The notes under the pieces are model-generated. The model saw nothing but the letters and a program-made list of their open reading frames with translations. It searched no databases and was not told the DNA's origin. From the NCBI GenBank assembly GCA_964457685.1, contig CAYWFS010000005.1:1-62206 (forward strand): 62,206 bases of DNA, read 5' to 3'. The stretch comes from an uncultured Ruminococcus sp. Lineage in GTDB: Bacteria > Bacillota > Clostridia > Oscillospirales > CAG-272. The first letter of the stretch is position 1; every line of letters begins with the position of its first letter. Both the position numbers and the translations under genes were made by a program. Shown here one piece after another: positions 13,762 to 53,332 of the stretch.

Positions 13762-14035
13762 AAAACAAAAAGTCCCCTGCCGACAAAACAGCAGAGGACG
13801 GATATACCGTGTTACCACCTCAGTTTACCATACCCTCACGAGTACAGCCTCAGTAGGCACTGATTATGCCCTGATATTATAACGTATATCAAACGTCACA
13901 GCCTACGCAGAAAAAATCCTTCGGTGTGCTGCTACGGAAATGTATTCACGCATACGGTATTCATTGGCTTGCACCGACCGCCAACTCTCTGAGAAATCGA
14001 ACACGCTACTCTTTTTCCATCATCGCATTTCAATA
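13762..14035 (-). promoter_or_regulatory. T-box riboswitch leader with specifier UAC (tyrosine)
   Basis: Minus strand shows a GA/K-turn base (AUGCGAUGAUGGAAA...UUUCCGUAGCA), an AGAGA box and distal loop (CAGAGAGUUGGCGGUCGGUGCAAGCCAA), and the specifier loop GAAUACA (UAC = 13942-13944). It also has the T-box GAGGUGGUAACACGG (about 13807-13821) and a competing terminator GUCCUCUGCUG/CGGCAGGGGAC plus U-tract (13762-13799). Confidence 0.85.
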
Positions 14036-14082: not shown

Positions 14083-15315
14083 TTATTCGCCGAAATACTT
14101 GGCTTCTTCCTGCGACATTACACGACAACCGCAGAATCCGCTTTCCTCGAGCTTTGAGAACAGCTTTCCGAGCTTTTTAACGGATTTATAAAGAGCAACA
14201 TCGTATTCGCCTCTCATGGAATCCGCAAGCTTGAGTGCGTCTGTGAAATTGTCATCGTCATAGATAACGGCAAATTTCTTTTTCTGAGTGGGAATCTGAT
14301 ATTTCTGTTCGAGAAGAATAGCACAAAGTCTTTCAAATCCGATTGAGAATCCTACAGCGGGAATGCTTTCGCCGAGGAACTTACCGATGAGGTTGTCATA
14401 GCGACCGCCACCGCCGATAGCACCCTTGAAGTCGGGACTGGAAATCTCGAAAACAGTGCCTGTGTAGTAGCCCTGACCACGAACAAGAGTCATGTCGTAG
14501 GTTACTTCAAATCCGTCTGCGAGAGAGTTGGAAGCATCCATGATACGTCTGAGGTTGTCGATACAATCGAGCTTTCCGCAGAGTTTTTCGGCATCATCGA
14601 GAGTGAAAGGTGTTACTCCGATTGCGGAGATAAGCTTTTCTACAACAGCGGAGTCAAAGCCCTTTTCGAGAAGCTCTGCTTTTACGCCGTCGAATCCGAT
14701 TTTGTCGAGCTTGTCGAGGGAAATACAAACGGAATCGCAGGCATTTTCTTCAAATCCCGCACCCATGATTATAGCCTTGAGAAGTCTTCTGTCGTTGATT
14801 CTTATGCCGAATCTTGAGAAGCCTATGTTGTGGAGAGCCTTTGCGGTGGTTGTGATAAGCTCTACTTCTGCTGTCCATGAATCCGAACCGATTATATCAA
14901 TGTCGCACTGGTAGAACTCACGCATTCTGCCTTTCTGAGGACGTTCCGCACGATAAACTCTGTCTATCTGAATGACCTTAAAGGGATTTGCAAGCTTTGC
15001 ACGATTATTTGCATAGTAACGTGTGAGGGGGAGTGTAAGGTCATAGCGAAGACCCATGTCGGCAATATCCTTTTCGTTGCCGGAAGAAATAGCCTCCTCG
15101 AGCTTTTCACCACGCTTCATTATCTTAAAAATAAGATTGAGGTTTTCGCCGCCGTCGCTTTTGTCGAGGTTTTCTATGTCTTCGATAATGGGAGTTGAGA
15201 TTCTTTCAAATCCGCAGGAGCGGTATGTTTCAAGGATACTGCTTTGCAGATAGTCTCTGATAAGCACCTCGCCCGGAAGAAAATCCGAGGTTCCTTTTAC
15301 GGGAGTAATTTTCAT
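14083..15315 (-). CDS. hisS: Histidine--tRNA ligase
   Basis: 410 aa class II aaRS. N-terminal GTSDFLP, motif 2 region REFYQCDIDIIG and motif 3 GGGGRYDNLIGKF are present. Confidence 0.85.
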   Translation of the reverse strand: MKITPVKGTSDFLPGEVLIRDYLQSSILETYRSCGFERISTPIIEDIENLDKSDGGENLNLIFKIMKRGEKLEEAISSGNEKDIADMGLRYDLTLPLTRYYANNRAKLANPFKVIQIDRVYRAERPQKGRMREFYQCDIDIIGSDSWTAEVELITTTAKALHNIGFSRFGIRINDRRLLKAIIMGAGFEENACDSVCISLDKLDKIGFDGVKAELLEKGFDSAVVEKLISAIGVTPFTLDDAEKLCGKLDCIDNLRRIMDASNSLADGFEVTYDMTLVRGQGYYTGTVFEISSPDFKGAIGGGGRYDNLIGKFLGESIPAVGFSIGFERLCAILLEQKYQIPTQKKKFAVIYDDDNFTDALKLADSMRGEYDVALYKSVKKLGKLFSKLEESGFCGCRVMSQEEAKYFGE

Positions 15316-33687: not shown

Positions 33688-35574
33688 TCAGCTTTTTCTG
33701 AGATTTTCCTTGTTGTACTGGAGCATATAAAGCTCATAATATCTTCCGCGTTTTGCAAGAAGCTCATCGTGGTTTCCTTCTTCGAGAATTTCGCCGTGAG
33801 ACATTACGATTATCTTATCGGCGTGCTGAATGGTCGAGAGACGATGTGCAACAATAAGCATGGTTCCGATATTCATCATTTTGGAAAGTGAATCCTGAAT
33901 GAGAAGCTCGGTTTCAGTGTCGATATTTGCGGTGGCTTCGTCAAGTATCATTACTTCGGGTCGCTGTACTATCGTTCTTGCGAATGAGAGAAGCTGTCTC
34001 TGACCTGCGGAGAAGTTGTTTCCTCTTTCACGAACCTCTTCGTCAAGACCTGCGGAAAGCTTTGATATGAACTTGTCTGCGTTTACCTCACGGCAAGCTT
34101 CCATTATTTCAGCGTCCGAAACATCGTCACGGCGGAGAAGAATGTTACTTCTTATAGTTCCCGAGAAAAGGAATACATCCTGTAGCATCTGACCGAAATG
34201 ACGGCGGAGAGAGCTTATCTTGAATTTCTTTATGTCGATACCGTCAATGAGAATCTGTCCCTTTTGAATATCGTAGTTGCGGCATATGAGAGAGAGAATC
34301 GTTGTTTTACCGGAGCCTGTGGAACCTACAAAAGCAACTGTCTCCTTTGCGTTTACCTTAAACGATACATCCTTAAGCACCCATTCGCCGGGATTGTACG
34401 CAAACCATACGTTTTTAAATTCAATATCGCCGTTTATATGCTCGATGTCAATAGCGTCATCTTCGTCAACCACATCGGGAGTTATCGCAAAGATTGTGAA
34501 TATCTTTTCTGCGGAGGCAAGAGCGGACTGTAACCAGTTGAACTGCTCTGCAAGGCTCTGAATCGGGTTGAAGAACTTTGAAATGTACATATAGAATGTA
34601 ACAAGAGTACCGCTTGTGATGGTCTGACCGAGGAAAGATGTGTCCTTGATATATCCTCTGCCGCAGAGATAGAGAAGACACATGACGGAGGAGATATAAA
34701 GCATATATACAAGAGGACGGAATATACCGAAGACGAATATCTGCTTCTGCTTTGCACTTCCGAGCTTGCGGTTCTTTTCTTCAAAGCATTCCTTTTTGTA
34801 TTCCTCACGGTTGAACACCTGAATAATTTTCATTCCCGAAAGATGCTCTGAAAGATATGTATTTATATCTGTGGAAGCGTCCTTAACTTCACGGTAAGCC
34901 TTTCTGGAGAACTTACGGAAGATAACGGTAAAGAGTACGATAAACGGCACGAAGCAAAGAACCATAAGAGTAAGCTCATAGTTCAGACAGAGCATGGCAC
35001 AAAGTACGCCGATTATGACGAAAGTGTTCTTCACAAGGTTTACTATAATATTTGTAAACATCATGGAGATTGCGTCTGTGTCGTTGGTTACTCTTGTTAC
35101 AAGCTTTCCGACGGGGATGGAGTTCTGCTGTGCGTGTGAAAGAGACTCAATATGCTCAAACAAATCGAGACGAACTGCGGAGACTATCTTCTGACCCGTC
35201 TTTTGAAGAACGATCGCCTGAATATATGTGCAAACAAGAGAAACGATGAGTATTCCCGCATATACCGCAACATACGAGAACAGCAGACTCATTTCAAAGT
35301 CGTTTTTGATTATCTCCTCGATTTTACCGATAAGCAGGGGAGAAACTATATCGTATGCAATCGAGAACATCATAATGAAAAGGACTGCAACGAAGTTTTT
35401 GGTGTAGGGCTTTGCGTATTTCAAAAGAGACGCTATTATTTCGGAGTCCTTCATTGTTCTGTCGAAGCCGATAGCCTCTTTTTTGTCCTTTATCGAAAGG
35501 TATGCGATAATAAATATTACCGATATTGCTCCGATAAAAGCACCGACTATAAGTAAGGGATAAAATTCTCTCAT
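33688..35574 (-). CDS. ABC exporter, fused permease/ATPase (heterodimer partner)
   Basis: 628 aa with 6 TM segments plus an NBD. Walker A GSTGSGKTT, signature FSAGQRQL and Walker B ILDEATA are present. Confidence 0.9.
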   Translation of the reverse strand: MREFYPLLIVGAFIGAISVIFIIAYLSIKDKKEAIGFDRTMKDSEIIASLLKYAKPYTKNFVAVLFIMMFSIAYDIVSPLLIGKIEEIIKNDFEMSLLFSYVAVYAGILIVSLVCTYIQAIVLQKTGQKIVSAVRLDLFEHIESLSHAQQNSIPVGKLVTRVTNDTDAISMMFTNIIVNLVKNTFVIIGVLCAMLCLNYELTLMVLCFVPFIVLFTVIFRKFSRKAYREVKDASTDINTYLSEHLSGMKIIQVFNREEYKKECFEEKNRKLGSAKQKQIFVFGIFRPLVYMLYISSVMCLLYLCGRGYIKDTSFLGQTITSGTLVTFYMYISKFFNPIQSLAEQFNWLQSALASAEKIFTIFAITPDVVDEDDAIDIEHINGDIEFKNVWFAYNPGEWVLKDVSFKVNAKETVAFVGSTGSGKTTILSLICRNYDIQKGQILIDGIDIKKFKISSLRRHFGQMLQDVFLFSGTIRSNILLRRDDVSDAEIMEACREVNADKFISKLSAGLDEEVRERGNNFSAGQRQLLSFARTIVQRPEVMILDEATANIDTETELLIQDSLSKMMNIGTMLIVAHRLSTIQHADKIIVMSHGEILEEGNHDELLAKRGRYYELYMLQYNKENLRKS

Positions 35575-37355
35575 CAGTCGTTTACCTCCTTTTCTTCATC
35601 CAAACGCTGAAGCTCTACCATTTTATGGTACTCACGATTTGTTTCGTAAAGCTCGTTGTGTGTGCCGACAGCCGCTATTTTGCCATCGCTTATAAAGACT
35701 ACCTTGTCCATTTTCTCAACCGCAGTGACTCTGTGTGCGATAAGGAGAGTTGTCTTTCCCTTGCGTGTTTGTCTGAGATTGTCGAGAATTTTCTTTTCCG
35801 TATTTGTGTCAACCGCAGATACAGAGTCGTCAAGGATAAGTATCGGTGCGTTTTTGATTATAGCTCTTGCAATGGAAATTCTCTGCTTCTGACCGCCCGA
35901 TACCGTAACACCACGCTCACCGAGTATCGTTTCATATCCGTCGGCAAAATCGGTTATGTTTTCGTGTACGTCCGAGATTACGGCGGCATTTTCAACAGCT
36001 TCATGCTTTATTGAAGTGTCGGCAAAGGTGATGTTGTTTTCGATAGTGTCGGAGAAGAGGAAGTTGTCCTGCGGAACATATGCGATGGATGAGCGAATAT
36101 CCTTGATCTTCATTTCGTTTACGTCTGTTCCGTCAATGAAAAGTGTACCATCCTCTACGTTGTAGGTTCTGAGAAGAAGATCGACAAGTGTGGTCTTTCC
36201 CGAACCCGTAGCACCGATAATACCGATGTTTTCGCCGGCTTTAATACTCAGACAAATATCGTCAAGTGCATTGAAATCCGCAAAAGGATAACGGAAAGAG
36301 AGGTGTCTGTATTCGATGTCTCCCTTTAAGCTTTCGATGTGACGTGCCTTTTCACTGTCAACAACCTCGGGCTGTGCATCGAGAAGTGTTCCGATTCTGT
36401 CAAGGGAAGCTTTACCTCTGGAGTGCATTTCAATGAGCTGTGATATAGCCATGATAGGCCAAACTATGGAGGTGAAATAGCCGATAAACTCAATAAGCTC
36501 ACCTGCGTTGAAAATATCGCTGTGAACAAGGTATCCGCCGTAGCCGAGAATAACGCAAATTATAGATTCGACAAAAAGGGTGACGAATATATTAAGGAAA
36601 GTCGAGACCTTGGTGTATTCTACGTTTGCGTCCTCGTTTTCGCTGTTGAGCTTGCGGAATGCCATAAGCTCTGCGGTTTCACGAACGAATGCTTTGATTA
36701 CGGAAATACCGGAAAAGCTTTCCTGCGAAAAATCCGAAAGATTTGAAAATGCCGCCTGACGTGTTTCCCATTTTTTCTGCATGGTCTTTCCGACAACGGT
36801 ACCGACACTGAGAAGAAGCACCATGGGGATAAGAGAAAGCAGTGTGAGCATATGGTTCATTTTCCACATCTTCCACATTGAGAGAACGCCGAGAAGAAGT
36901 GCATCGAAGAACATGAGAACACCGTCTCCGAAGCATTCCTGAACGGTTTGGAGGTCGTTTGTGAATCTTGACATAAGATCGCCGACCTTGTTTGTCTGAT
37001 AGAAGGAGACAGAAAGATCCTTGCATCTGTCAAACATACGACTTCTGAGATCTGTCTCGACACGGATGGCAGAACCGAAGAAGCAAATTCTCCACAAAAA
37101 TCTGCCGAATACCATGGCGATTATGACGAATATCATCGGACGGCATACTTCATCGAGAAGAAAGGTCATGTCGAAATCACGAACAGTGCCGTCTGAAAGT
37201 GTAACTATCCCGTCGTTAAGTCCGTTTACCACGGTTTTGTAAAGCTCGGGGATGATGAGCTGGAAGTAGTCTACCATAACAAGTGCAAGGATTCCAAGCA
37301 GCAGTATGGCACCGTACTTCAGGTAATATTTGTTCAGATGTTTTCCGAAAAGCAA
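35574..37355 (-). CDS. ABC exporter, fused permease/ATPase (heterodimer partner)
   Basis: Walker A GATGSGKTT, signature VSGGQKQRISIARA and Walker B ILDDSVSA are present. The start is set to the TTG at 37355, 6 nt after AAGGAGGA. A TGATG junction links it to the downstream gene. Confidence 0.9.
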   Translation of the reverse strand: MLFGKHLNKYYLKYGAILLLGILALVMVDYFQLIIPELYKTVVNGLNDGIVTLSDGTVRDFDMTFLLDEVCRPMIFVIIAMVFGRFLWRICFFGSAIRVETDLRSRMFDRCKDLSVSFYQTNKVGDLMSRFTNDLQTVQECFGDGVLMFFDALLLGVLSMWKMWKMNHMLTLLSLIPMVLLLSVGTVVGKTMQKKWETRQAAFSNLSDFSQESFSGISVIKAFVRETAELMAFRKLNSENEDANVEYTKVSTFLNIFVTLFVESIICVILGYGGYLVHSDIFNAGELIEFIGYFTSIVWPIMAISQLIEMHSRGKASLDRIGTLLDAQPEVVDSEKARHIESLKGDIEYRHLSFRYPFADFNALDDICLSIKAGENIGIIGATGSGKTTLVDLLLRTYNVEDGTLFIDGTDVNEMKIKDIRSSIAYVPQDNFLFSDTIENNITFADTSIKHEAVENAAVISDVHENITDFADGYETILGERGVTVSGGQKQRISIARAIIKNAPILILDDSVSAVDTNTEKKILDNLRQTRKGKTTLLIAHRVTAVEKMDKVVFISDGKIAAVGTHNELYETNREYHKMVELQRLDEEKEVND

Positions 37356-37532
37356 AATCGCTCCTCCTTGTTTATGCAAATAATTAAAAAATCCGTACAA
37401 TATTAAATAATAGCATAAGAGTGATGAAAAATCAATAGATATAGAAATAAATTATATAATAATAAGGAATTATTTGAGCGTTTGAAACGAAAAAGTTTGT
37501 ATGACATAAATCTCTCGGAAAACGTCGCCTCA

Positions 37533-37561: not shown

Positions 37562-37602
37562 AACTTGTAATAATGCGATGTTATCTGAATGAGGGGAAAA
37601 CT

Positions 37603-39132
37603 ATGTATCAGCTGAATAATGCCGCCGAATATCTCGTAAAAACCGCGGCTCGAATCCCGAATAAGCTTGCCTTTGCCGATGACGGTCGAGGATATACGTT
37701 CGGTGAACTGCTTGCGGCTTCAATGAGTGCGGGTGAGCAAATATATCGTGAAGTCGAAGGAATAAGAAAGCGTATTGCCGTTATCGTGGACAGAAGTGCC
37801 GTGTCGCTTGTCGGTTGCTTCGGGGTGCTTTTTGCCGGCTCCTGCTATGTTCCGATAGACAACAAAATGCCTGAAGACAGAATGAACGATATACTCTCTC
37901 AGATAGAGCCGTCGGCAGTTCTGTATTCGCTGAAGGACAAAAAAACCGCGGCAAAGCTTGAGGGAAAATATAAAACTCTTCTTATCGAGGAAATATCCGA
38001 AAAGCCTTATGACCCGTTTTTGTGGGATAAAATATCGGCAGAGGTTCTCGATATCGACCCGGCTTATATGATATTTACATCAGGCTCTACAGGAAAGCCG
38101 AAAGGTATACTTATCTCCCACAGAAGCCTTATAGATTTTACGGAATGGATGGCGGAGACTACGGAAATTACCGAAGACAGTGTACTCGGAAATCAGGCAC
38201 CGTTCTATTTTGACCTCTCGGTAAAGGATATATATCAGACTCTCAGAAACGGCTGTACGACCTACATCATCGCAAAGAAGCTGTTTATGTTCCCGACACT
38301 GCTTGTTGATTATCTGAACGAACATGAGGTGAACACTCTTATTTGGGCTACATCTGCGTTCAGAATGGTTGCGGATTCGGGAATATTCGAGAAAAAACAG
38401 CCGAGCAGCATAAGAAAAGCGATTCTCGGCGGTGAAGCTTTACAGGCAAAGCACGTCAATAAATGGAAAAAAGCAGTTCCGAATATCAACGTGATAAATC
38501 TCTACGGACCTACAGAGGTAACCGTTGACTGTACATACTATAAGCTTGAGCGTGATTTTGAAGACGGTGAGCCGATTCCGATCGGAAAAGCCTGCAAAAA
38601 CATGGAGGTTATCCTGCTTGACGATGAACTGAGACCGGTAGAAGACGGAGAAGCAGGGGAAATATGCGTGCGTGGAATAGGACTTGCTCTCGGATATTTC
38701 GGAGACAGCGAGAAAACCGAAAAAGCATTCATACAAAACCCAATGAATCCGTACTATCCCGATAAGCTGTATCGCACGGGAGATATTGCAAAAAGACTGC
38801 CCGACGGAAATCTCGTGTTCCTCTCACGTCGAGACAATCAGATAAAGCACATGGGTTATCGCATTGAGCTTGGGGAAATAGAAAACGCACTGTCGGCTGT
38901 CAGCGGTGTAGGAGACGCTATTTGCTTCTTTGATTCCGATGATGACGCTATCGTATGTTGCTGTGCATCTTCTCTTGATCAAACAGAGCTTGCGGTAAGT
39001 CTAAAGGACAAGGTTCCGCGTTATATGCTTCCGAATGTTTGGAGAATATACGACAGACTTCCGATAAATGCGAACGGAAAGATTGACCGCCCACGTCTCA
39101 AGGAAAGCTACTTCAATGAAAAAAATAAATGA
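37603..39132 (+). CDS. DltA-like amino-acid adenylation enzyme (carrier-protein ligase)
   Basis: A-domain core motifs FTSGSTGKPKG, FYFDLSV (Asp that binds an alpha-amino group), LYGPTE, YRTGD and NGKIDR are present. The start is set to the ATG at 37603, after GAGGGGAAAACT. Confidence 0.8.
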   Translation: MYQLNNAAEYLVKTAARIPNKLAFADDGRGYTFGELLAASMSAGEQIYREVEGIRKRIAVIVDRSAVSLVGCFGVLFAGSCYVPIDNKMPEDRMNDILSQIEPSAVLYSLKDKKTAAKLEGKYKTLLIEEISEKPYDPFLWDKISAEVLDIDPAYMIFTSGSTGKPKGILISHRSLIDFTEWMAETTEITEDSVLGNQAPFYFDLSVKDIYQTLRNGCTTYIIAKKLFMFPTLLVDYLNEHEVNTLIWATSAFRMVADSGIFEKKQPSSIRKAILGGEALQAKHVNKWKKAVPNINVINLYGPTEVTVDCTYYKLERDFEDGEPIPIGKACKNMEVILLDDELRPVEDGEAGEICVRGIGLALGYFGDSEKTEKAFIQNPMNPYYPDKLYRTGDIAKRLPDGNLVFLSRRDNQIKHMGYRIELGEIENALSAVSGVGDAICFFDSDDDAIVCCCASSLDQTELAVSLKDKVPRYMLPNVWRIYDRLPINANGKIDRPRLKESYFNEKNK

Positions 39133-43655: not shown

Positions 43656-44087
43656 TTATTTCAGTATATCCGCAAGATACAGAATAGCTTCACGGTATCC
43701 GTCAAGTCCGTGTCCTGCTATTGTTTTTGTGGCGGCGAGAGAAACATACGAAAATTGTCGGAAGGACTCTCTTTGGCTTATGTCGGAGATGTGTACCTCA
43801 ACGGTAGGTATTCCTACGGCTTTGAGTGCGTCAAGGATTGCAACGCTTGTGTGGGTATATGCCGCAGGATTTATTACGATTCCGTCGAATTTTCCGTAGG
43901 CAGACTGTATCTTGTCAACAATATCGCCCTCGTGATTTGACTGAAAATGCTCGTATTTGATTCCGTTTTCGGTGCAAGTGTCGTCAATCAGGCTGAGAAG
44001 TGCGTTATAGTCCTGTTTTCCGTAAATATCAGGCTCCCGTATACCAAGCATATTGATGTTGGGACCGTTAATTATCAGTAGAGTCAT
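43656..44087 (-). CDS. aroQ: Type II 3-dehydroquinate dehydratase
   Basis: 143 aa with LIINGPNINMLGIREPDIYG, FQSNHEG and INPAAYTHTS. Confidence 0.92.
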   Translation of the reverse strand: MTLLIINGPNINMLGIREPDIYGKQDYNALLSLIDDTCTENGIKYEHFQSNHEGDIVDKIQSAYGKFDGIVINPAAYTHTSVAILDALKAVGIPTVEVHISDISQRESFRQFSYVSLAATKTIAGHGLDGYREAILYLADILK

Positions 44088-45333
44088 TTTTACCCCTTTT
44101 CACTACGGAGATAATTCCGTCTGAATTACAGCTCGGACTTCCGTTCATCTCGAATATAATGTCTGCGGCTTTTTCGTACATTGGCAGACGTTTTTTGTAC
44201 AGCTCGGATAAATCGTTTGCCTGAGATACGGGTCTTCCGTCTTTCGGCAGTGAAGCAATGTCACGTTTCATAAACACAACGGTGCTGTTCTGTCTGAGCA
44301 GGGGAATATTGTTTTCGCGAACCACTACACCACCGCCGCAGGAAATAACAAGACCCGATTTCTTCGAGTATTCTTCAAGTACCTTATGCTCAAGCTCACG
44401 GAATTTGTCCTCTCCATGGTTCTTGAATATCTCGGGAATGGAAACACCGCTTTGTTTTACTATTTCTTCGTCAAGGTCAACAAATTCACGGTTCAGTTTT
44501 TGTGCAATGAGCTGTCCGTTGGTGGTTTTTCCGACTCCGGGCATACCGATGAGCATGATATTCTTCATGTCAAACTCTATAATATCCTTGATTTGGTCAA
44601 TCAGAGAGTTTTCAAGAGCTTGACCGATGAAAAATTCAGCCGCCGCTTTTGCCTGAGCAACCAGCATACAAAGTCCCGAGATGCACGGAATATTGTTTTC
44701 TTCGGCTTCAAGTATAATTGCGGTTTTCGATGGGTTGTATATCATATCGACAACGCCCGACAGCTTGGGGAAATGAACGAGTGACACAGGAGACATTCCG
44801 TTGTTCGGGTACATACCGACAGGGGTTGTGTTAATGAGAACATCGCAGTCGGAGTGGCGGTCGATATTTTCGTAATTGTTTTCACCGCTTCTTGAAATTA
44901 TAACTATTTCAGAGGCTCCTCTGTCAGCGGCAACAGTTCTTGCTGTCATGGAGGCTCCACCGCTTCCGAGAATCAGCACTTTTTTTCCGCATACATCGAT
45001 ATTTCCTTTGTCAAGCATATAGGAAAAGCCGTAGTAGTCGGTGTTGTCTCCCTTGAGTCGTCCATCGGGCAGATGAGTTATAGTGTTAACGGAACCGATT
45101 CGCAAGGCTTCGGGGGAAATTACATTGAGAAACTGCATGACGGTTTTTTTATACGGAATCGTCACGTTTATCGAGTCGTAGTTGTCGGATTTCAAGAATG
45201 TGCCGACCTCGTTTTCGTCAAGCTCGATAAGTCTGTATTCGTAATCGCAAAGGTGTGAGTGTATCAGCGGAGAATAGCTGTGACCGAGAGGTTTTCCTAT
45301 AAGTCCGCATTTCATTTCGCTTGTTTTCTTCAT
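44068..45333 (-). CDS. Bifunctional shikimate dehydrogenase / shikimate kinase
   Basis: The N-terminal part is AroE (GLIGKPLGHSYSPLIH, Rossmann LGSGGASMTAR). The C-terminal part is AroK (Walker A GMPGVGKTT). The start is set to the ATG at 45333; another candidate is at 45315. Confidence 0.85.
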   Translation of the reverse strand: MKKTSEMKCGLIGKPLGHSYSPLIHSHLCDYEYRLIELDENEVGTFLKSDNYDSINVTIPYKKTVMQFLNVISPEALRIGSVNTITHLPDGRLKGDNTDYYGFSYMLDKGNIDVCGKKVLILGSGGASMTARTVAADRGASEIVIISRSGENNYENIDRHSDCDVLINTTPVGMYPNNGMSPVSLVHFPKLSGVVDMIYNPSKTAIILEAEENNIPCISGLCMLVAQAKAAAEFFIGQALENSLIDQIKDIIEFDMKNIMLIGMPGVGKTTNGQLIAQKLNREFVDLDEEIVKQSGVSIPEIFKNHGEDKFRELEHKVLEEYSKKSGLVISCGGGVVVRENNIPLLRQNSTVVFMKRDIASLPKDGRPVSQANDLSELYKKRLPMYEKAADIIFEMNGSPSCNSDGIISVVKRGKNDSTDN

Positions 45334-45343
45334 AGCTGTAACC

Positions 45344-46435
45344 TTATTTTTCCATTTCTCCGCTGTCGAGAAGTGCGTCATATATGGCAATGGCAAGTGC
45401 GGCTTCAATTATCGGAACAGCTCTCGGAACTATGCAGGGATCATGACGACCGCCGACTGTTATCTTTGTGTTCTTTCCCGTAGAGAGGTCAACCGTGTCC
45501 TGTTCATGACCGATAGACGGGGTGGGTTTTATAGCACAGCGGAATATGAGTGGCATACCGTTTGTCATTCCGCCGAGAATACCGCCGCTGTTGTTGCTTT
45601 TTGTCTTTACCGTGTCGCCGTCATAGTAGAACGGGTCGTTGTTTTCGGAGCCGTACATATCGCTTGAAGCAAATCCCGCACCGAACTCTATTCCCTTGAC
45701 CGCAGGAACGGAGAACACGATTGAAGAAATTCTCGACTCCATACCGCAGAAAATATGCTCGCCGAGACCAACGGGAAGTCCGATTGCAGCACATTCTATC
45801 ACTCCTCCGACGGAATCCTGCTGCATTCTTGCACTTTCGATGACCTTTTCCATTTTCTCTCCGGCACTTTCGTTTAAAACAGGGAGAGCGTGAGAGAGAA
45901 TATCATCGAAATCATTACGGCAAACGTCTGTCGGATCGAAGCGATAGTCGAGTGCAGAGCCTATTGATTCAATATGAGCGGCAATATAAATTCCACTCTT
46001 TTCAAGCTCCTCCTTTAATATACCGCCTATCGCACATATGGGAGCGGTAAGTCTTCCCGAAAAATGGCCTCCACCTCGCAGATCAGCCGTTTTACCGGAC
46101 TTTACCATGGCAGGATAATCCGCATGGGACGGACGCGGAGTTTGAGAAAGCTCGGAGTAATCAGATGAACGAGCATTTTCGTTTTTTATAACGATGTTTA
46201 TCTCATTTCCGTTTGTCGTAAGTCCGTCAAATCCGCTTACCAATATAGGGGTGTCCGTTTCCTTGCGTGAGGTTGTAAGCTTGCTTTGACCCGGAGCCCG
46301 TCTCTGCATAAATGCCGAAAGCTTGTCCGTGTCTACTGTGATTCCGGCAGGAATACCGCTTGCTTTAACGCCTATTTCGGTATCGTGTGAGCCGCCGTAG
46401 ACTGAAATCTTTATATTTTTGCCGTAAGAGGTCAT
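45344..46435 (-). CDS. aroC: Chorismate synthase
   Basis: The start is set to the ATG at 46435 (MTSYGKNIKISVYGGSH). RPSHADY and GGRHDPC motifs are present. Confidence 0.92.
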   Translation of the reverse strand: MTSYGKNIKISVYGGSHDTEIGVKASGIPAGITVDTDKLSAFMQRRAPGQSKLTTSRKETDTPILVSGFDGLTTNGNEINIVIKNENARSSDYSELSQTPRPSHADYPAMVKSGKTADLRGGGHFSGRLTAPICAIGGILKEELEKSGIYIAAHIESIGSALDYRFDPTDVCRNDFDDILSHALPVLNESAGEKMEKVIESARMQQDSVGGVIECAAIGLPVGLGEHIFCGMESRISSIVFSVPAVKGIEFGAGFASSDMYGSENNDPFYYDGDTVKTKSNNSGGILGGMTNGMPLIFRCAIKPTPSIGHEQDTVDLSTGKNTKITVGGRHDPCIVPRAVPIIEAALAIAIYDALLDSGEMEK

Positions 46436-46452
46436 GTTTGTCTCCTTATCGT

Positions 46453-47709
46453 TTATACGCTTTTTTCGGTAGTGTTTATACATAATTTTCCGAAATCGTC
46501 AAAGAATCCCGGGTATGATTTTGACACCGCCTCGCATCCCTTTATGGTGACGGGAGATGTAGTGAGAAGTGAAGCAACGGCGGCAGACATAACTATTCTG
46601 TGGTCGTTGTACGAGTCAACCGTTATTCCGTCACGCTTGCTTATTCCGCCGATTACCGTAATATCATCTCCCACTACTTCAATATTTCCGCCGAGGGAAC
46701 GTATCATCTCACAAACGGACTCAATTCTGTCACTTTCTTTAAGCCGCAGTCTGCCGCAGTTTTTTATCACAGTTTTTCCCTCTGCCGCCATTGCAACAAC
46801 GCAAAGTACGGGAACGAGGTCGGGAATATTTGATGCGTCTGTCGTGATTCCGCGGAGAGTGCCTTTTTTTACGCTAACGCAGTCTCCGAAAACCGTAACC
46901 TCAGCACCGAACTGACGCAGAAGCTCGACTATTGCACTGTCGCCTTGAGTTGAATTTATATTAAGCCCCGATACGGTAATCTCGCCGTTTCCGATAGCAC
47001 CAAGAGAAAGCATGAACGCCGCATTTGACCAGTCTCCTTCGACTTTCAAACTTTCGGGGGAAACATAGCTTCCTCTTATATGATATGTGTTTTCGCTTTC
47101 CGTGACCTTTACTCCGAACTTTTCAAGAACTTGTTCTGTAAGCGTGATGTACGGCTTTGATTCTACCTTTCCCGTCAGCGTTATCGAGCTTTCGTCTTTA
47201 AGATGTGGAAGAGACAGCATCAGTCCTGTAGTAAACTGAGATGAAACGGAGCCATCGAGAGTATATTCTCCCGAGCTTATCTTTCCCGATATTGACAGCG
47301 GATGATTTTTTATTACCGCACCGTGACGCTCAAGCTCATCGGACAACGGACTGAGAGGGCGAGAGGAAAGCTTACCCTCAGTGATAAATTCGGCATCTAT
47401 TCCAAGCACGGACGCAAGAGGTAGCATGAATCTGAGTGTGGAGCCTGATTCGCCGACATAAAGCACGGCATTTTTCGGAGTCTTTTTTATTGGATATACT
47501 GTGTATCCGTTATCCGTGCAGTCAATTTCCGCTCCGAGAGAACGCAGGCACGATACCGTAGCGTCTATATCCCTGCTTGAACGTGAACAGAGTATGTGAG
47601 TCGGTTTTTCCGAAAGTGCGGCACATATCAATGCTCTGTGTGCATACGATTTTGACGGGATAGCATCTGTTTTACCGCACGGCATGGGGGAGAGAAGTGT
47701 TATTTCCAT
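46453..47709 (-). CDS. aroA: 3-phosphoshikimate 1-carboxyvinyltransferase (EPSP synthase)
   Basis: 418 aa with PSKSYAHRALI, GESGSTLRF and LKESDRI motifs. Confidence 0.92.
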   Translation of the reverse strand: MEITLLSPMPCGKTDAIPSKSYAHRALICAALSEKPTHILCSRSSRDIDATVSCLRSLGAEIDCTDNGYTVYPIKKTPKNAVLYVGESGSTLRFMLPLASVLGIDAEFITEGKLSSRPLSPLSDELERHGAVIKNHPLSISGKISSGEYTLDGSVSSQFTTGLMLSLPHLKDESSITLTGKVESKPYITLTEQVLEKFGVKVTESENTYHIRGSYVSPESLKVEGDWSNAAFMLSLGAIGNGEITVSGLNINSTQGDSAIVELLRQFGAEVTVFGDCVSVKKGTLRGITTDASNIPDLVPVLCVVAMAAEGKTVIKNCGRLRLKESDRIESVCEMIRSLGGNIEVVGDDITVIGGISKRDGITVDSYNDHRIVMSAAVASLLTTSPVTIKGCEAVSKSYPGFFDDFGKLCINTTEKSV

Positions 47710-48773
47710 TTGAATTCACCGAGTATAAAGCTTTTTATGTCAGAAAAATCAATCGTCATAAGCTCACATTTGCCTATCTCATGCGGAACCACGAGGGTTA
47801 TTTTTTCGCCCGATTTTTTCTTATCTCTGGAGGAGACCGAAATCAGGCTGTCGAGGTCGTAATTTCTGTATATGAACGGGTCAAGTGAGTATTTACGAAG
47901 AAGCTTTTCAAGTCGCACAAGAGTTTCTTCACTGCACATACCGTTTTTGCAGGCACATTCGGTTATAAAATACATTCCCGACGCTACAGCATGACCGTGA
48001 GATACCGTGAAATCCGACAAGGCTTCTATACTGTGTCCGAAGGTGTGACCGAGATTCAGCTTTTGACGTTCTCCGCAGTCGAGAAAATCACGGCTTACCA
48101 CGTCACGCTTGTCTTTTACGCATTCCTCGATTATTTCTTCAATGTCATCGAAAAGGCTGTGTGAGTTTTCGAGAAGCTCAAACAGGGAAGTGTTTCCGAG
48201 GACACCGTACTTTATAACCTCAGCCATTCCGTCGGCGATAAAGCTGTCCGAAAGTGTTGCGAGAAGAGAGGGATCGCTCAAAACAAACGATGGCTCATGA
48301 AATGCTCCGACAAGATTTTTTCCTTCGGGAATATCGACAGCGGTTTTTCCTCCGACAGATGAATCCACCATTGCCAGAATAGAGGTCGGAACGGAAACAT
48401 AGCGTATACCTCTCAGATATACCGATGAAGCGAAGCCGGCAATGTCTCCCGTAACTCCTCCGCCGAGTGCAGCTATGCAGTCGTGTCTTGTGAGACCGTT
48501 TGCCGCCGCATGACGAAGTATTTCGCCGAGAGTTGTCAGATTTTTGCTTTGCTCTCCGCTTTTGAAAACGAAGTCATTCGCAAGTGAAAATCCCGATTTC
48601 AAAAGGCTTTTTCTTACGGTATCTCCGTAAAGTGCATGAACATTGTCGTCCGCAACTATGAGAAGCAGGGAGTCGTTTGAGCCGAGTGCGGAGCGAATAT
48701 ATTCACCGAAGTTTTCGATGGAGTTTTTTTCTATAACTATGTCGTAGCTGCTTGCTTTAACAGTTTTCTTCAT
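47700..48773 (-). CDS. aroB: 3-dehydroquinate synthase
   Basis: 357 aa with GGGVTGDIAGFASS and the metal-site context LNLGHTFGHSIE. Confidence 0.92.
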   Translation of the reverse strand: MKKTVKASSYDIVIEKNSIENFGEYIRSALGSNDSLLLIVADDNVHALYGDTVRKSLLKSGFSLANDFVFKSGEQSKNLTTLGEILRHAAANGLTRHDCIAALGGGVTGDIAGFASSVYLRGIRYVSVPTSILAMVDSSVGGKTAVDIPEGKNLVGAFHEPSFVLSDPSLLATLSDSFIADGMAEVIKYGVLGNTSLFELLENSHSLFDDIEEIIEECVKDKRDVVSRDFLDCGERQKLNLGHTFGHSIEALSDFTVSHGHAVASGMYFITECACKNGMCSEETLVRLEKLLRKYSLDPFIYRNYDLDSLISVSSRDKKKSGEKITLVVPHEIGKCELMTIDFSDIKSFILGEFKWK

Positions 48774-48782
48774 ATTAATAAA

Positions 48783-49613
48783 TCAGCCGTCGGCCTTTTC
48801 CTTTGCTTCACAGCCCTCTTTGAGAAGTGCTTCAAGCCGTGAATCATCTCCCGAGTCGAGAGCGTTTTTGTAGTCCGTGAGAGCGTTTATTATAAGCTCA
48901 AGCTCTGCAGAAAGGTTGTCACGGTTCTCATGGAAAAGTTCCGTCCACATTTTTACGTCAAGCTGTGCGACTCTGGTAAGGTCACGATAGCTTCCGGCGG
49001 AGATTCCGTTGTGGTTCTGAGCTCTCGGACTCTTAACGAATGCGTTAGATACCACATGAGCAAGCTGGGATGTGTATGCAATCATCTCATCGTGTGCTTC
49101 TGCCGTGGTGAACGTGAATCTTGCAAAGCCTGCCGGAGAAAGAGCCTTTTTTGCACGGTCGAAAAGTGCTATATCATCTCGGCACGGCGGAACGAGAACC
49201 ATTGTCTCATCCTTGAATAAGTCGCTTCTTGAATTCTTTATTCCTCCGAGATGTGAGCCTGCCATCGGGTGACCGCCCACAAATGTAAATCCGTGCTTTT
49301 CGGCAAGAGAGAATCCGACTGAGCAGATATATCTCTTTGTTCCGCAGAGGTCTATGACAAGCGTGGAGGGGAGAATATTTTCTGCGTTGTTTTCAAGCCA
49401 TTCTGCGGCGTTTTTCGGTGTTACCGCAAGAAGAATAAGGTCGCATGAGCCTATATTTTCGTGTGTTAAGGTTTCGTCTACTATGTTGTTGAGCTTAGTC
49501 CAGCTGAGTACGACATTGCTTATATCGTAGCCGAGGACTGTGCATTCGCTTTCCTTAAACGCACGAGCCATTGAACCGCCTATGAGACCGAGTCCTATAA
49601 TTCCGACAGTCAT
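48783..49613 (-). CDS. tyrA: Prephenate dehydrogenase
   Basis: 276 aa with the N-terminal Rossmann IIGLGLIGGSMA and GGHPMAG. There is no ACT domain. Confidence 0.88.
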   Translation of the reverse strand: MTVGIIGLGLIGGSMARAFKESECTVLGYDISNVVLSWTKLNNIVDETLTHENIGSCDLILLAVTPKNAAEWLENNAENILPSTLVIDLCGTKRYICSVGFSLAEKHGFTFVGGHPMAGSHLGGIKNSRSDLFKDETMVLVPPCRDDIALFDRAKKALSPAGFARFTFTTAEAHDEMIAYTSQLAHVVSNAFVKSPRAQNHNGISAGSYRDLTRVAQLDVKMWTELFHENRDNLSAELELIINALTDYKNALDSGDDSRLEALLKEGCEAKEKADG

Positions 49614-50632
49614 GCCTGTACCTCATCTTCCTTGATGGCGTTGAGAACACGTCTTGTTGACTTCATAACATCATCGAACTGCTCGGGTGTGAGTGACTGA
49701 GCACCGTCGCAAAGGGCAGCACGAGGGTTGTTGTGTACCTCTATCATAACACCGTCAGCACCGCAAGCAGCAGCCGCAAGTGCCATAGGCTTTACAAGAC
49801 GGGACATACCTGTTGCATGGCTGGGGTCTACTATGATCGGGAGGTGGGTAAGCTCATGAAGCATGGGAACGGCGGAAAGGTCGAGTGTGTTTCTTGTGTA
49901 GGTCTCGAAGGTTCTTACACCTCTTTCGCAAAGGATTACGTTTTCGTTTCCGCCTGCCATGATGTATTCCGCACTCATGAGAAGCTCTTTTAAGGTGTTC
50001 GCAAGTCCTCTCTTTAAGAGAATGGGCTTTCTTGTTTTTCCAAGCTCTTTAAGAAGCTCGAAGTTCTGCATATTTCTTGCACCAACCTGAATAACGTCTA
50101 CGTTCTCGAAAAGGGGAAGGTGATTGGCATTCATAATTTCAGTAACGATCGGAAGTCCCGTTTCTCTCTTTGCCTCAAGAAGAAGCTCGATACCGTCCGC
50201 ACGAAGTCCCTGGAAATCGTAGGGAGATGTACGAGGCTTGAACGCACCGCCTCTGAGCATGGTAGCACCGGAAGCCTTTACCGCACGGGCAACCTCAAGT
50301 ATCTGAGCCTCATTTTCAACAGAGCAGGGTCCTGCAATAACTGCAAAAATATTTCCGCCTACGGTAGTCTTTCCCGAAACGTCGATAACGGAATTATCGG
50401 GATGGAATTTACGGTTTGCACTCTTGAACGGGTCTGAAATTCTTTTTACGCTTTCCACAATATCAAGTCCTGTCAGCATTTCCGAGTCTATTTTCGATGT
50501 GTCGCCGATTAATCCGACTACTGTCTGAAATTCGCCGTTATAAACGTGAACTCCGACTCCCTGAGCCTTTATCCAGTCGCAGAAGCTGTCTATCTGTTTT
50601 TGTGTAACTCCGTTTTTAAGAACTGCAATCAT
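49610..50632 (-). CDS. aroF: 3-deoxy-7-phosphoheptulonate (DAHP) synthase, type I-beta with an N-terminal ferredoxin-like regulatory domain
   Basis: 340 aa with the KPRTSPYDFQGL motif. An N-terminal extension of about 70 aa precedes the TIM barrel. Confidence 0.9.
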   Translation of the reverse strand: MIAVLKNGVTQKQIDSFCDWIKAQGVGVHVYNGEFQTVVGLIGDTSKIDSEMLTGLDIVESVKRISDPFKSANRKFHPDNSVIDVSGKTTVGGNIFAVIAGPCSVENEAQILEVARAVKASGATMLRGGAFKPRTSPYDFQGLRADGIELLLEAKRETGLPIVTEIMNANHLPLFENVDVIQVGARNMQNFELLKELGKTRKPILLKRGLANTLKELLMSAEYIMAGGNENVILCERGVRTFETYTRNTLDLSAVPMLHELTHLPIIVDPSHATGMSRLVKPMALAAAACGADGVMIEVHNNPRAALCDGAQSLTPEQFDDVMKSTRRVLNAIKEDEVQA

Positions 50633-50689
50633 TTCTCTTTATTCCTTTTCGTAATATTTGTAGATTTTTTAAAGCAGGGAGGTGATGAT

Positions 50690-50881
50690 ATAAAGAAAAC
50701 GGGCTGTCCAGTGTTAATACTGAAAGCCCGTTTTTAATATAATCTTAACTATAATTCAAAAACAAAATTTCGGCACAAACACTCTTACTTTCTACGGGTG
50801 GTAAAATAGTAAGAGTAATAAAAGAAGTATTCAGCTGCCGCAAAAATGTTTCTCATTACGGTAATTCCTTTTCTTTAAGAT
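50690..50881 (-). promoter_or_regulatory. Ribosome-mediated transcription attenuator of the aro operon (leader ORF plus helices 1:2, 2:3 and 3:4)
   Basis: Helix 1:2 pairs ACUCUUACU (50808-50816) with AGUAAGAGU (50781-50789). Helix 2:3 is the antiterminator, pairing AGUGUUUGUGCCGAAA (50768-50783) with UUUCAGUAUUAACACU (50710-50725). Helix 3:4 is a 12-bp terminator CGGGCUUUCAGU/ACUGGA(C)AGCCCG plus UUUUCUUUAU (50690-50730). Confidence 0.7.
50785..50856 (-). CDS. Aromatic-rich leader peptide MRNIFAAAEYFFYYSYYFTTRRK
   Basis: I translated this by hand; it is too short for the ORF track. ATG at 50856 and TAA at 50785-50787. It has 5 Tyr and 4 Phe in 23 codons, with 8 aromatics in a 9-codon run. 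AAGGA lies 9 nt upstream, and the ATG is about 25 nt from the predicted TSS. Confidence 0.7.
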   Translation of the reverse strand: MRNIFAAAEYFFYYSYYFTTRRK

Positions 50882-50887
50882 GGCTTA

Positions 50888-50916
50888 ATTGTAGCACACG
50901 TTTTTTTGTTTGTCAA
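50888..50916 (-). promoter_or_regulatory. Promoter of the aro operon leader (TTGACA-17-TACAAT)
   Basis: Minus strand reads TTGACAaacaaaaaaacgtgtgcTACAAT. Confidence 0.7.
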
Positions 50917-51163
50917 TATGTATACGGCGATTTTTTATTCATTCGCTGTAGATTCGGCAGTATTGTTGTGTTTTCGTGGTGTAAAAATGTCGTAAAATCA
51001 GTGATAATCACAACAAAAACACGATGAGATGGCGTAAAAATAATAAATTACGAACTTAAATAAAACAAAAAGATGTGCTTGTAATATCCCTTTGAATGTG
51101 ATAATATTATATACGATTATAAAATATTCATCAAAAACGAGCTTGCCCGAGGGGAGAGAAAAA

Positions 51164-53332
51164 GTGCAGACAAATGAAAATCAAATAAAATATTCGCCGG
51201 AAACTTCTGTCTCAATCTTAAAAGGAGTGGGAGAGGCGAGGCTGAAAGCTCTTTGCGGCATGGGAATAAACACGCTCTCTGACCTTGTGAAGTGCTATCC
51301 GAGGGCGTATCAGAACCGTGGTGAATTGTCAACGACTGCTGAGATAAAGGAAAAGCTGGTGGGCGGTGAGAGCGATGTGTTTTCCGTTGTTCTTACGGTT
51401 TCCTCAGAGCCGACAACGAAGCTGATACGCCGTGGAATGCTCCTTACAAAGCTCCGTGCGTTCGATGAATACGGAACGGTGCAGATAACGTATTTTAATC
51501 AGCAGTACCTGAAATCTACCATGCACACGGGAGGAGTTTTCCGCTTCTTCGGTCGTGTGTCAGTTGACGGACGCTCTCTTGTAATGACAAACCCGATTAC
51601 GGAGCCGTACACCGACACAGAGCCGCTCAGAGGTATTGTTCCCGTGTATCCGCTGAGAGCAGGACTCAAGCAGAAATTCATGTCGGGGATAGCTACCGAA
51701 GCTCTAAGACTGCTGTCGGGAAGTCTTACCGAATTTTTGCCGAGCGAAATTCTTTCCGAGTTGTCACTTCCGACTTATTCCTACGCACTGAATTCCGTGC
51801 ATAATCCGGTGCGAACGGAGGATATAGTAAACGCAAGACGCAGACTTACATTCAACGAACTTTTTCTCATGATGCTTGCACTGAATGTAAGAGGAAATGA
51901 AACAAAGCGAAATAACAGCGTTCCGATAAAGGATTGCGGAATAGACGAGTTTGTAAAAAGTCTGCCGTATGAGTTGACAAATGCACAGAAAAGGTGTATT
52001 TCCGAGATAATCGGCGATATGTCAGGGGAATGTCTTATGAATCGCATTCTTACGGGAGATGTCGGAAGCGGAAAGACAATAGTTGCCGCCGCCGCTTGTT
52101 ATTCCGCTGTCAAAAACGGTTACAGAGCCGCTCTTATGGTGCCGACGGAAATACTTGCAGAACAGCACGCAGAGGATTTTTGCAAGCTTTTCGGAGGATT
52201 CGGAATAAAATGCGTACTCCTAACAGGCTCAACGAAGAAAAAAGAACGTGAAGCAATTCTTGCGGGTTTGAGAGACGGCGGTGACAGAATAGATATAGTT
52301 ATCGGAACACAGGCACTTATCTCGGAGAACGTGGTGATAGATAAGCTCGGACTTGCCGTTATAGACGAACAGCACAGATTCGGTGTGGCTCAGCGTGCGG
52401 CACTGTTTGAAAAGGCAGAAAGCGTTCACTGTCTTGTAATGAGTGCGACACCGATACCGAGAACCATGACCCTTGCAGCCTACGGAAGTATTGCAGTTTC
52501 GAGAATAGACGAGCTTCCGAGTGGCAGACAAAAGACAGACACGTTCATTGTAAACGAAAGCTACAGAAGCAGACTTATCGCATTCATCAAAAAACAGGCG
52601 GACGAGGGACACCAGACCTATGTTGTATGTCCTGCCGTGGAGGAAAAGACGGATAACGAGACCGACAGTGAAAATATGGGAAATATTTCCTTCGATGAGG
52701 TGCTGTTTAATGAAAAGCTACCGATGAAAGCGGCGGAAACAACAGCGGAAGAGCTTAGAGAAGCACTACCGGAGCTGAAAATAGGACTGATACACGGAAA
52801 AATGAAGAATGTCGAAAGAGAACAGGTTATGCGTGAGTTTGAGCAGGGAATTGTTGACGTTCTTGTGTCCACAACGGTCATTGAAGTCGGAGTAAACGTG
52901 CCGAACGCTTCTCTTATGATAGTGGAAAACGCGGAAAGATTCGGCTTGTCACAGCTTCATCAGCTAAGGGGGAGAGTAGGACGAGGAAAAATAAAATCGT
53001 ATTTCATTCTTGTTTCGGACTCGACAGACAACACGTCAAGAGAGAGACTCAGAGCTATAAAAAGTACGACAGACGGTTTCGAGATAGCGGAATACGACTT
53101 AAAACAGCGTGGTCCCGGAGACTTCTTTTCCGATAACGGAATAATACGACAGAGCGGAGAGGTTGACCTTGCACTTGCTTCAGCCTGCACGGATACCGAT
53201 ATGATAGAAAAAGCATCGTATTATGCGAAAAAAACGGCAGATGAAGACCCTACGCTTTCAACCGAAAAAAATCGGCTCCTCAGACGACAGCTTGCGAGAT
53301 TTATAAAAAACACCTCGAAAACTCAAAACTGA
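51164..53332 (+). CDS. recG: ATP-dependent DNA helicase RecG
   Basis: The start is set to the GTG at 51164, after GGGGAGAG. Walker A GDVGSGKT, DEQHRFG and QLRGRVGRG are present. Confidence 0.93.
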   Translation: MQTNENQIKYSPETSVSILKGVGEARLKALCGMGINTLSDLVKCYPRAYQNRGELSTTAEIKEKLVGGESDVFSVVLTVSSEPTTKLIRRGMLLTKLRAFDEYGTVQITYFNQQYLKSTMHTGGVFRFFGRVSVDGRSLVMTNPITEPYTDTEPLRGIVPVYPLRAGLKQKFMSGIATEALRLLSGSLTEFLPSEILSELSLPTYSYALNSVHNPVRTEDIVNARRRLTFNELFLMMLALNVRGNETKRNNSVPIKDCGIDEFVKSLPYELTNAQKRCISEIIGDMSGECLMNRILTGDVGSGKTIVAAAACYSAVKNGYRAALMVPTEILAEQHAEDFCKLFGGFGIKCVLLTGSTKKKEREAILAGLRDGGDRIDIVIGTQALISENVVIDKLGLAVIDEQHRFGVAQRAALFEKAESVHCLVMSATPIPRTMTLAAYGSIAVSRIDELPSGRQKTDTFIVNESYRSRLIAFIKKQADEGHQTYVVCPAVEEKTDNETDSENMGNISFDEVLFNEKLPMKAAETTAEELREALPELKIGLIHGKMKNVEREQVMREFEQGIVDVLVSTTVIEVGVNVPNASLMIVENAERFGLSQLHQLRGRVGRGKIKSYFILVSDSTDNTSRERLRAIKSTTDGFEIAEYDLKQRGPGDFFSDNGIIRQSGEVDLALASACTDTDMIEKASYYAKKTADEDPTLSTEKNRLLRRQLARFIKNTSKTQN

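Follow-up and report, generated by a model that had tools for sequence, protein, structure and literature searches.

A Tyr/Phe-codon leader ahead of an aroF operon in an uncultured Ruminococcus sp. is a probable ribosome-mediated transcription attenuator matching the published uORF-13 class

The contig CAYWFS010000005.1 of an uncultured Ruminococcus sp. (assembly GCA_964457685.1), analysed here over positions 1 to 62,206 (the window), carries an aromatic amino acid biosynthesis operon, aroF-tyrA-aroB-aroA-aroC-aroE/aroK-aroQ (43656-50632). The leader of this operon contains a short Tyr/Phe-rich open reading frame (ORF) followed by an intrinsic terminator. All leader elements and operon genes are on the minus strand and are given in window coordinates. 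The leader is probably a ribosome-mediated (leader-peptide) transcription attenuator of the operon; judging from the sequence and its relatives, we put the probability at about 0.8. An original prediction, made from the sequence alone, had proposed such an attenuator on the pheL/trpL logic, and the proposal is supported by the recurrence of the element at related aroF loci, by covariation, and by a conserved register of complementarity. The leader is probably an instance of a motif class published in 2019 and absent from Rfam 15, not a new discovery.

The sequence elements upstream of the switch are readily identified in the window. The sigma-A-type promoter (50916-50888) comprises a -35 element TTGACA (50916-50911), a 17-nt spacer, and an extended -10 element TGcTACAAT (-10 at 50893-50888). 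In accordance with the consensus promoter of the original prediction, it scores 11 of 12 consensus matches plus the TG of the extended -10 in our promoter scan of the window. Transcription would start near 50881. The Shine-Dalgarno site AAGGA (50870-50866) is located 9 nt 5′ of the ATG at 50856, which itself lies 31 nt from the -10 element. The leader ORF (50856-50785; MRNIFAAAEYFFYYSYYFTTRRK) has 23 codons and a UAA stop (50787-50785). Codons 10-18 (50829-50803) read YFFYYSYYF, exactly as had been noted, with Tyr or Phe in eight of the nine positions, and this run is the predicted ribosome stall site. The downstream genes named in the original prediction are borne out by NCBIfam as DAHP synthase (aroF), prephenate dehydrogenase (tyrA), aroB, aroA, aroC, fused aroE-aroK, and aroQ.

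Between the ORF and aroF lies the intrinsic terminator (50734-50692, about -21 kcal/mol), which is as strong as had been supposed. Its 5′ arm AAAACGGGCUUUCAGU (50734-50719), loop AUUAAC (50718-50713), and 3′ arm ACUGGACAGCCCGUUUU (50712-50696) form a stem of 12 G+C-containing pairs, one bulged C, and 4 A-U pairs, followed by CUUU (U-tract, UUUUCUUU). The end of the terminator is 62 nt 5′ of the aroF start codon at 50632. A pattern-based terminator scan of 50400-51300 returned zero sites; we reject this result as a false negative, since both RNAfold and the family alignment show the terminator, and the scanner missed it because of the single bulged C in the stem.

The 202-nt leader folds with -52.4 kcal/mol. 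Dinucleotide shuffles give -32.8 +/- 3.7 kcal/mol (z = -5.3), and none of 200 reaches the energy of the leader. Segment 1 of the original prediction (ACUCUUACU, 50816-50808) and segment 2 (AGUAAGAGU, 50789-50781) pair perfectly over 9 bp, and segment 2 contains the UAA stop, as had been claimed. The 1:2 element to which they belong is, however, bipartite and not the single hairpin first envisaged. In one part, P2 (-15.2 kcal/mol), the aromatic codons with segment 1 (5′ strand, 50817-50801) pair with a 3′ strand that includes segment 2 and the stop codon (50795-50780). In the other part, P1, the minimum free energy folds pair the start codon and codons 1-7 (5′ strand, 50859-50836; GUAAU, AGAAACA, CGGCA) with 50775-50751. 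The bases that form the antiterminator are therein paired with codons 1-7, not with the Tyr codons.

The switch resides in strand B (50780-50751). In the terminated state, it provides the 3′ strand of P1 (50775-50751); in the read-through state, it provides the 5′ strand of the antiterminator (50780-50756, GUUUGUGCCGAAAUUUUGUUUUUGA), which pairs with 50737-50713. Since the antiterminator 5′ strand overlaps the P1 3′ strand, and the antiterminator 3′ strand coincides with the 5′ arm and loop of the terminator, the antiterminator is mutually exclusive with P1+P2 and with the terminator. The antiterminator of the original prediction is hence retained in part: the bases after segment 2 do pair with the terminator 5′ arm, but segment 2 itself takes no part. 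The energies of the competing folds, whose comparison had been suggested along with that prediction, are -27.7 kcal/mol for the P1+P2 hairpin (50859-50751), -20.8 kcal/mol for the terminator (50738-50691), and -14.9 kcal/mol for the antiterminator (50780-50713). The duplex of B with 50740-50713, including an A/U-rich extension (UUUUGUUUUUGA with UUAAAAACGGG), has an energy of -14.6 kcal/mol (z = -3.3, p = 0.004 compared with shuffles).

The leader therefore displays the parts of a classical attenuator: an ORF with ATG and Shine-Dalgarno site near the transcription start, a cluster of codons for amino acids of the pathway, a terminator between the ORF and aroF, an anti-antiterminator (1:2) that includes the regulatory codons (P1+P2, with the aromatic codons in the P2 5′ strand), and an antiterminator (2:3) exclusive with both 1:2 and the terminator. 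Support for the last is moderate, because covariation is absent from it.

Related loci preserve this arrangement. Using the AroF protein as query, we collected the 80 closest loci from species-representative genomes (AroF identity 64-85%). All are from Clostridia-type isolates or metagenome-assembled genomes (MAGs), with labels such as Ruminococcus, Oscillospiraceae, Acutalibacteraceae, Lachnospiraceae, Lawsonibacter, and Angelakisella. A Tyr/Phe-rich mini-ORF (at least five aromatic residues in nine, 70-230 nt upstream of aroF) is present in 63 of the 80, for example MNRFFANNYFYLYFYYFCGNN, MLCKTNATAYSFFYFYFYFNEK, and MSLFVFAAAYFYFYFIMSQSKSDLCCK. These 63 loci and the window make up a set of 64 leaders, for each of which the best in-frame start was chosen. 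The start is ATG in 64/64, with a Shine-Dalgarno match of 4 nt or more ahead of it in 62/64. The peptides vary in length from 16 to 47 residues and consist of 19% Phe, 16% Tyr, and 0.1% Trp (319 Phe codons and 266 Tyr codons in the family, with a median of seven aromatic codons per leader). A promoter with at least 10 of 12 matches, usually with the TG, is found in 50 of 63 leaders (62 loci and the window), and the median distance from its -10 element to the ATG is 31 nt (interquartile range 30-35), the same as in the window. A strong hairpin with a U-tract separates the ORF from aroF in essentially every locus, and the gene order aroF-tyrA-aroB-aroA is conserved in most of them.

Such ORFs are rare in the background. 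Scanning both strands of ~97 kb from the 17 loci outside the leader set (~190 kb scanned) yields two comparable ORFs. Both are themselves upstream of aroF, at L027:2008-2100 (MSRTFGFPFAFYFYGYRKSFLRREG) and L041:1278-1364 (MNGRLNLNGTKAYYFYFSQSFYFSAGYF). Each may be a displaced leader or may serve a longer operon as its leader. We also considered that a T-box replaces the leader in these 17 loci; the idea is not supported, as an Rfam scan of them found neither a T-box nor any other Rfam family. Six loci assigned to MAGs labelled 'Bacteroidaceae bacterium' (L029, L043, L048, L065, L068, and L075) encode an AroF 69-72% identical to that of the window and are without an aromatic mini-ORF. They could represent mislabelled bins or horizontal transfer without the leader.

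An alignment of 56 leaders (MAFFT, alignment A1) has the consensus Shine-Dalgarno - ATG - ..UUUGCAGC.. - UUUUACUUUUACUUU - ..AAAGUAAGAGUG.UUU.UGCUGCA.. - spacer - GCU.CGCAGU..loop..ACUGCG.GC-UUUUUUU. RNAalifold on this alignment recovers the terminator alone; P1, P2, and the antiterminator were defined from per-sequence folds mapped to the alignment columns. In family P1 (columns 37-46 with 129-138), Phe-Ala codons pair with GCUGCAAA, the GCUGC strand, and double changes are observed in 7 of 10 pairs. In family P2 (columns 70-84 with 104-118), the aromatic codons pair with GUAAGAGUG, the GUAAGAG box, and double changes are observed in 9 of 15 pairs. The terminator (columns 200-214 with 225-239) has compensatory changes in 14 of 15 pairs and a conserved GCAGU top, and RNAalifold agrees with it. 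Over the terminated-state structure as a whole, 76.8% of cells are paired, compared with 67.5% after column shuffling (0 of 500 shuffles as high), and the covariation score is 0.36, compared with 0.20 after shuffling and 0.12-0.15 in the slid controls. Covariation thus backs P1, P2, and the terminator, and the ortholog alignment that had been proposed as a check on the original prediction comes out in its favour.

The antiterminator register emerged from folds in which the ORF was masked as far as the aromatic run and the 3′ arm of the terminator was left out. In this register, the 3′ strand of P1 (columns 129-134) pairs with the terminator 5′ arm and loop (columns 213-208), GCUGC(R) with (Y)GCAGU, in 63.7% of cells, compared with 27-45% when the register is slid. 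In an energy test of the same two regions, the mean is -11.1 kcal/mol with a mean z of -2.45, and p is at most 0.05 in 56% of loci. Cognate duplexes of strand B with the terminator strand are also more stable than non-cognate ones (-11.1 compared with -8.5 kcal/mol, permutation p < 0.0005), by the same margin as P1 (-11.4 compared with -8.3 kcal/mol), an advantage that could be inflated by the correlation of GC content between two strands of one genome.

The distances between stall site, stop codon, and strand B are compatible with a switch. Across the aligned leaders, 19-35 nt (median 29) separate the last aromatic codon from the B core downstream of it, and in the window strand B begins 22 nt past that codon. 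A ribosome stalled at the last aromatic codon would be positioned to open P2, and topologically P1 too, while leaving B free. Relative to the B core, the stop codon falls at -15 to +25 nt in 39/56 leaders. Seventeen stops, including the type seen in the window, are in the conserved GUAAGAG box, 14 nt upstream of B; most others are 5-14 nt past B. The leader ORFs accordingly come in two sub-architectures, one with an in-frame UAA in the GUAAGAG box 14 nt ahead of B, and one in which the ORF continues through B and ends 5-14 nt past it, with recurrent ...SDLCCK or ...VLFAA tails.

The proposed mechanism is as follows. Transcription would begin ~24 nt 5′ of the leader ATG. With the aromatic codons free of ribosomes, the RNA would form the long bipartite hairpin, in which P1 joins the start codon and codons 1-7 to 50775-50751 and P2 joins the Tyr/Phe codons to 50795-50780. 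The terminator would then form, because the hairpin sequesters strand B, and transcription would stop ahead of aroF. A shortage of charged tRNA-Tyr and/or tRNA-Phe would make the lead ribosome stall in YFFYYSYYF and keep P2, and hence P1, open. Free strand B could pair with the emerging 5′ arm and loop of the terminator, forming the antiterminator (50780-50713, about -15 kcal/mol), and RNA polymerase would read through into the operon. When Tyr and Phe suffice, termination would presumably follow from ribosome release and refolding of P1/P2. In this scheme, we infer that the ORF is translated, that ribosomes stall in it, that the folds compete kinetically, that ribosome and RNA polymerase are coupled, and that Tyr and Phe are what is sensed.

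Several points weigh against this mechanism. At equilibrium, the terminator (-21 kcal/mol) always beats the antiterminator (-15 kcal/mol), and therefore the model depends on co-transcriptional kinetics. In the window, the core of the antiterminator in the family register has a C.A mismatch and is weak alone (-5.5 kcal/mol, p = 0.40); the duplex becomes significant only with the A/U-rich extension. Across the alignment, no covariation was found for the antiterminator, whose 63.7% pairing equals the column-shuffle expectation of 63.4%, and therefore its support is conserved complementarity, not covariation. Missing covariation is expected here, because one strand must fit two partners; as a consequence, the upper terminator stem is conserved in sequence and the lower stem covaries freely. 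A test of the whole spacer against the terminator 5′ arm is almost uninformative (mean z only -0.73), because long A/U-rich spacers pair with anything, and it was replaced by the P1 3′ strand test and the comparison of cognate with non-cognate duplexes described above.

Two further difficulties concern the ribosome. A ribosome positioned at the stop codon of the window leader would cover no more than the outer 4-5 antiterminator pairs, and therefore termination under sufficiency must rely on ribosome release and P1/P2 refolding. RNA polymerase of B. subtilis is said to outrun the ribosomes, as Johnson et al. reportedly found in 2020 in Nature; therefore, coupling of transcription and translation in the Clostridial lineage is an assumption of the model. 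Finally, we searched the literature for experimental evidence on any member of the family and found none.

Other explanations of the leader start from the same observations. A protein or a small ligand could sense the structured leader, in a TRAP/PyrR-like or riboswitch-like manner, with the U/A/C-rich repeats as the binding site and the mini-ORF not the sensor. The P1/P2 hairpin and the conserved GCAGU and GCUGC boxes are indeed features at the RNA level, the antiterminator is without covariation, and protein- or RNA-based sensors are common in Firmicutes. Against it stand the in-frame ATG of every leader, the Shine-Dalgarno site of 62/64 leaders, and the promoter fixed ~31 nt upstream; moreover, the repeats are always in the Tyr/Phe frame and uninterrupted by stops, the stops cluster around strand B, and no Rfam family matches. 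We consider such a sensor improbable. Still less probable is that the peptide itself, as a small hydrophobic protein or as a leader peptide working in trans, is the functional product, and that the terminator merely ends its own transcript. Some leader peptides are described as acting in trans, for example peTrpL (PMC7298713), but the peptides of this family vary in length from 16 to 47 residues, the element is strictly linked to aroF, and the sequence is unconserved beyond the aromatic composition and the Phe-Ala codons, the latter being explained by P1 pairing. It is scarcely credible that the ORF arose by chance in AT-rich intergenic sequence beside an ordinary leaky terminator. Such an origin would agree with the window's antiterminator core, which in the family register is no better than chance, but it is refuted by the comparative data: the element is kept, with covariation, in 63 other species, the leader fold has a z of -5.3, and background ORFs of this kind are almost absent. 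All three explanations are disfavoured because ATG, Shine-Dalgarno site, and reading frame are invariant and the peptide sequence is not conserved.

A closer variant leaves the attenuator in place and changes its signal. The leader could report a single amino acid, as C. glutamicum aroR reportedly does, or general translation stress, instead of Tyr and Phe together. The precedent is aroR, with a reported response to Phe and none to Tyr (PMC11802643), and in the present family Phe codons (319) outnumber Tyr codons (266). On the other hand, both codon types occur in every member, usually alternating, and the operon has tyrA, not pheA. The family has almost no Trp codons (0.1%), which favours specific sensing over a general response. 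We regard this variant as unlikely, though clearly to be reckoned with.

The original prediction held such logic to be unexpected in Firmicutes. This premise is out of date, because attenuators of this kind have already been published, as uORF-12 and uORF-13 in 2019 (PMC6429828) and as an Acholeplasma example in 2021 (PMC8632094). Stav et al. 2019 (BMC Microbiol 19:66, PMC6429828, Additional files 1 and 3) describe uORF-12 and uORF-13, both found from Clostridium novyi NT, as 'aromatic amino acid attenuators'. According to those files, uORF-13, with the type example C. novyi NT NC_008593.1/2309418-2308872, comprises 336 distinct examples: 43% come from Firmicutes (Bacillales, Clostridiales, Thermoanaerobacterales, and Negativicutes) and the rest are metagenomic; roughly half precede aroF, and the second most common context is tyrA within the same operon. 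As described there, uORF-13 and the window leader share a short ORF with an F-Y-F core in the P1 loop and a terminator after it, the order aroF then tyrA, and an occurrence in Firmicutes, Clostridiales among them, and in metagenomes, and both are interpreted as trp-like attenuators. In our alignment, the family consensus UUU UAC UUU UAC UUU is located between the P1 strands (columns 37-46 and 129-138), and aroF is followed by tyrA in Firmicutes/Clostridiales operons. Therefore, the window leader probably belongs to uORF-13, which it matches feature by feature in a comparison made with the published description rather than with the seed alignment. That description comprises P1 and the terminator; P2, the antiterminator register, and the stop-codon geometry come from the present analysis and are not in that text.

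The remaining known systems are less similar. The other class of Stav et al., uORF-12 (1258 examples, PMC6429828), resembles the window leader as an F/Y-rich upstream ORF (uORF) in Firmicutes, with some members ahead of shikimate genes. As described, it differs in that the peptide immediately precedes P1 instead of lying inside it, the structure is more complex, and most members are upstream of amino-acid transporters. The motif uORFC-13-1 (Brewer et al. 2021, PMC8632094) likewise has a uORF with promoter, ribosome-binding site, Phe codons, and a terminator next to it, and occurs only upstream of aroF, but its 24 reported examples are confined to Acholeplasma and environmental sequences, with a U-run coding at least one Phe and no mention of a Tyr-rich run. 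C. glutamicum aroR (Neshat et al. 2014, as summarised in PMC11802643) has a Phe-Tyr-Phe peptide upstream of an aroF operon and acts by ribosome stalling, with experimental support; it is from Actinobacteria, and its reported response is to Phe, not Tyr. Stav et al. also state that the aroR peptide and RNA structure are distinct (PMC6429828). With E. coli pheL-pheA and trpL, the window leader shares regulatory codons in strand 1, the 1:2, 2:3, and 3:4 hairpins, and an intrinsic terminator, but no sequence or structural homology. Unlike them, it has a bipartite strand 1 (P1 + P2), two types of sensed codon, and as target the common pathway plus tyrA. In accordance, the Rfam leader-peptide families (Phe, Trp, His, Leu, Thr, and leu/phe) give no match at E <= 10 in 50550-51000, nor at E <= 5 in the leader of one related locus (L049), and we found no family in Rfam 15 that matches the aroF leader.

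In Firmicutes, the textbook regulators are T-boxes, TRAP, and riboswitches. Leader-peptide attenuation has nevertheless been put forward in this phylum in other cases: histidine attenuators are predicted in the B. cereus group, Peptostreptococcaceae, and Erysipelotrichales (PMC2965389, PMC9413887), and ribosome-mediated transcription attenuation is reported for B. subtilis bmrCD (PMC4191407). The present locus is a clean, well-conserved case of probable amino-acid-sensing ribosome-mediated attenuation in Firmicutes, where transcription-translation coupling has been questioned. In uncultured gut Clostridia, it may offer a natural reporter of such coupling and of Tyr/Phe-tRNA charging. Annotation would benefit from inclusion of the motif, as Rfam 15 lacks it and gene finders leave the mini-ORF uncalled. 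As the class itself was predicted in 2019, the value of the analysis lies in its confirmation and in a finer structural model (P1/P2, antiterminator register, and stop-codon geometry).

A wider proposition, to which we give slightly less than even odds, concerns a large group of Clostridia from gut and rumen, represented by no fewer than 63 species-level genomes in the set of the 80 closest AroF loci. In this group, a classical leader-peptide attenuator that reads both Tyr and Phe codons would be the main control of the common aromatic pathway, with no T-box or other Rfam 15 family detected. The lead ribosome would then have to keep up with RNA polymerase in these Firmicutes, unlike in the 'runaway transcription' reported for B. 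subtilis. The bipartite anti-antiterminator, with the 5′ strand of P1 behind the stalled ribosome, would then be a variation of the trp paradigm that is absent from the 2019 uORF-13 description.

Tyr codons are also read elsewhere in the window. The original prediction placed a tyrosine T-box at 13762-14035, and RF00230 matches 13791-14032 on the minus strand with 110 bits, the only T-box in the window. Its specifier, in the context GAA-UAC-A, is UAC (Tyr). The gene behind it (12089-13786, minus strand) encodes an AMP-dependent acyl-CoA-ligase-family protein of ~565 residues (best NCBIfam match 405 bits, below cutoff). Therefore, the T-box itself is confirmed, but it precedes neither tyrS nor an aro gene. 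An ABC-transporter ATPase gene follows the ligase-family gene, and hisS (14083-15315) is just upstream of the T-box. T-boxes resemble the aroF leader in reading tRNA charging to control a terminator; the aroF leader itself has no covariance-model match to RF00230 and none of the defining T-box features. As far as the sequence goes, the organism appears to use two tRNA-dependent RNA mechanisms that involve Tyr codons.

Some candidates in the window were set aside. Just 3′ of the attenuator's terminator, an anti-Shine-Dalgarno-like sequence CACCUCCC (50679-50686, minus strand), together with the following CUUUAA, is complementary to the Shine-Dalgarno region of the leader (UUAAAG..GGA, -6.8 kcal/mol). 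It is conserved in 2/64 leaders and is probably a chance match. When both strands of the 62 kb are searched for ORFs of 8-45 codons that start with ATG and have at least six F/Y/W residues in nine consecutive positions, two are found, one being the leader ORF. The other (37533-37432, minus strand; …IIPYYYIIYFYIY) is judged to be a chance ORF, without Shine-Dalgarno site and without terminator. It is located in an AT-rich divergent promoter region between genes at 35574-37400 (minus strand) and 37573-39132 (plus strand). An ORF with a Thr run (17318-17229) is an artefact, because it is contained in a 258-aa ORF.

The composition of the aroF operon itself shows two further features. It contains tyrA, without pheA or a chorismate mutase gene. 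Shikimate dehydrogenase (aroE) and shikimate kinase (aroK) are fused in a single 446-aa ORF (44068-45408, minus strand).

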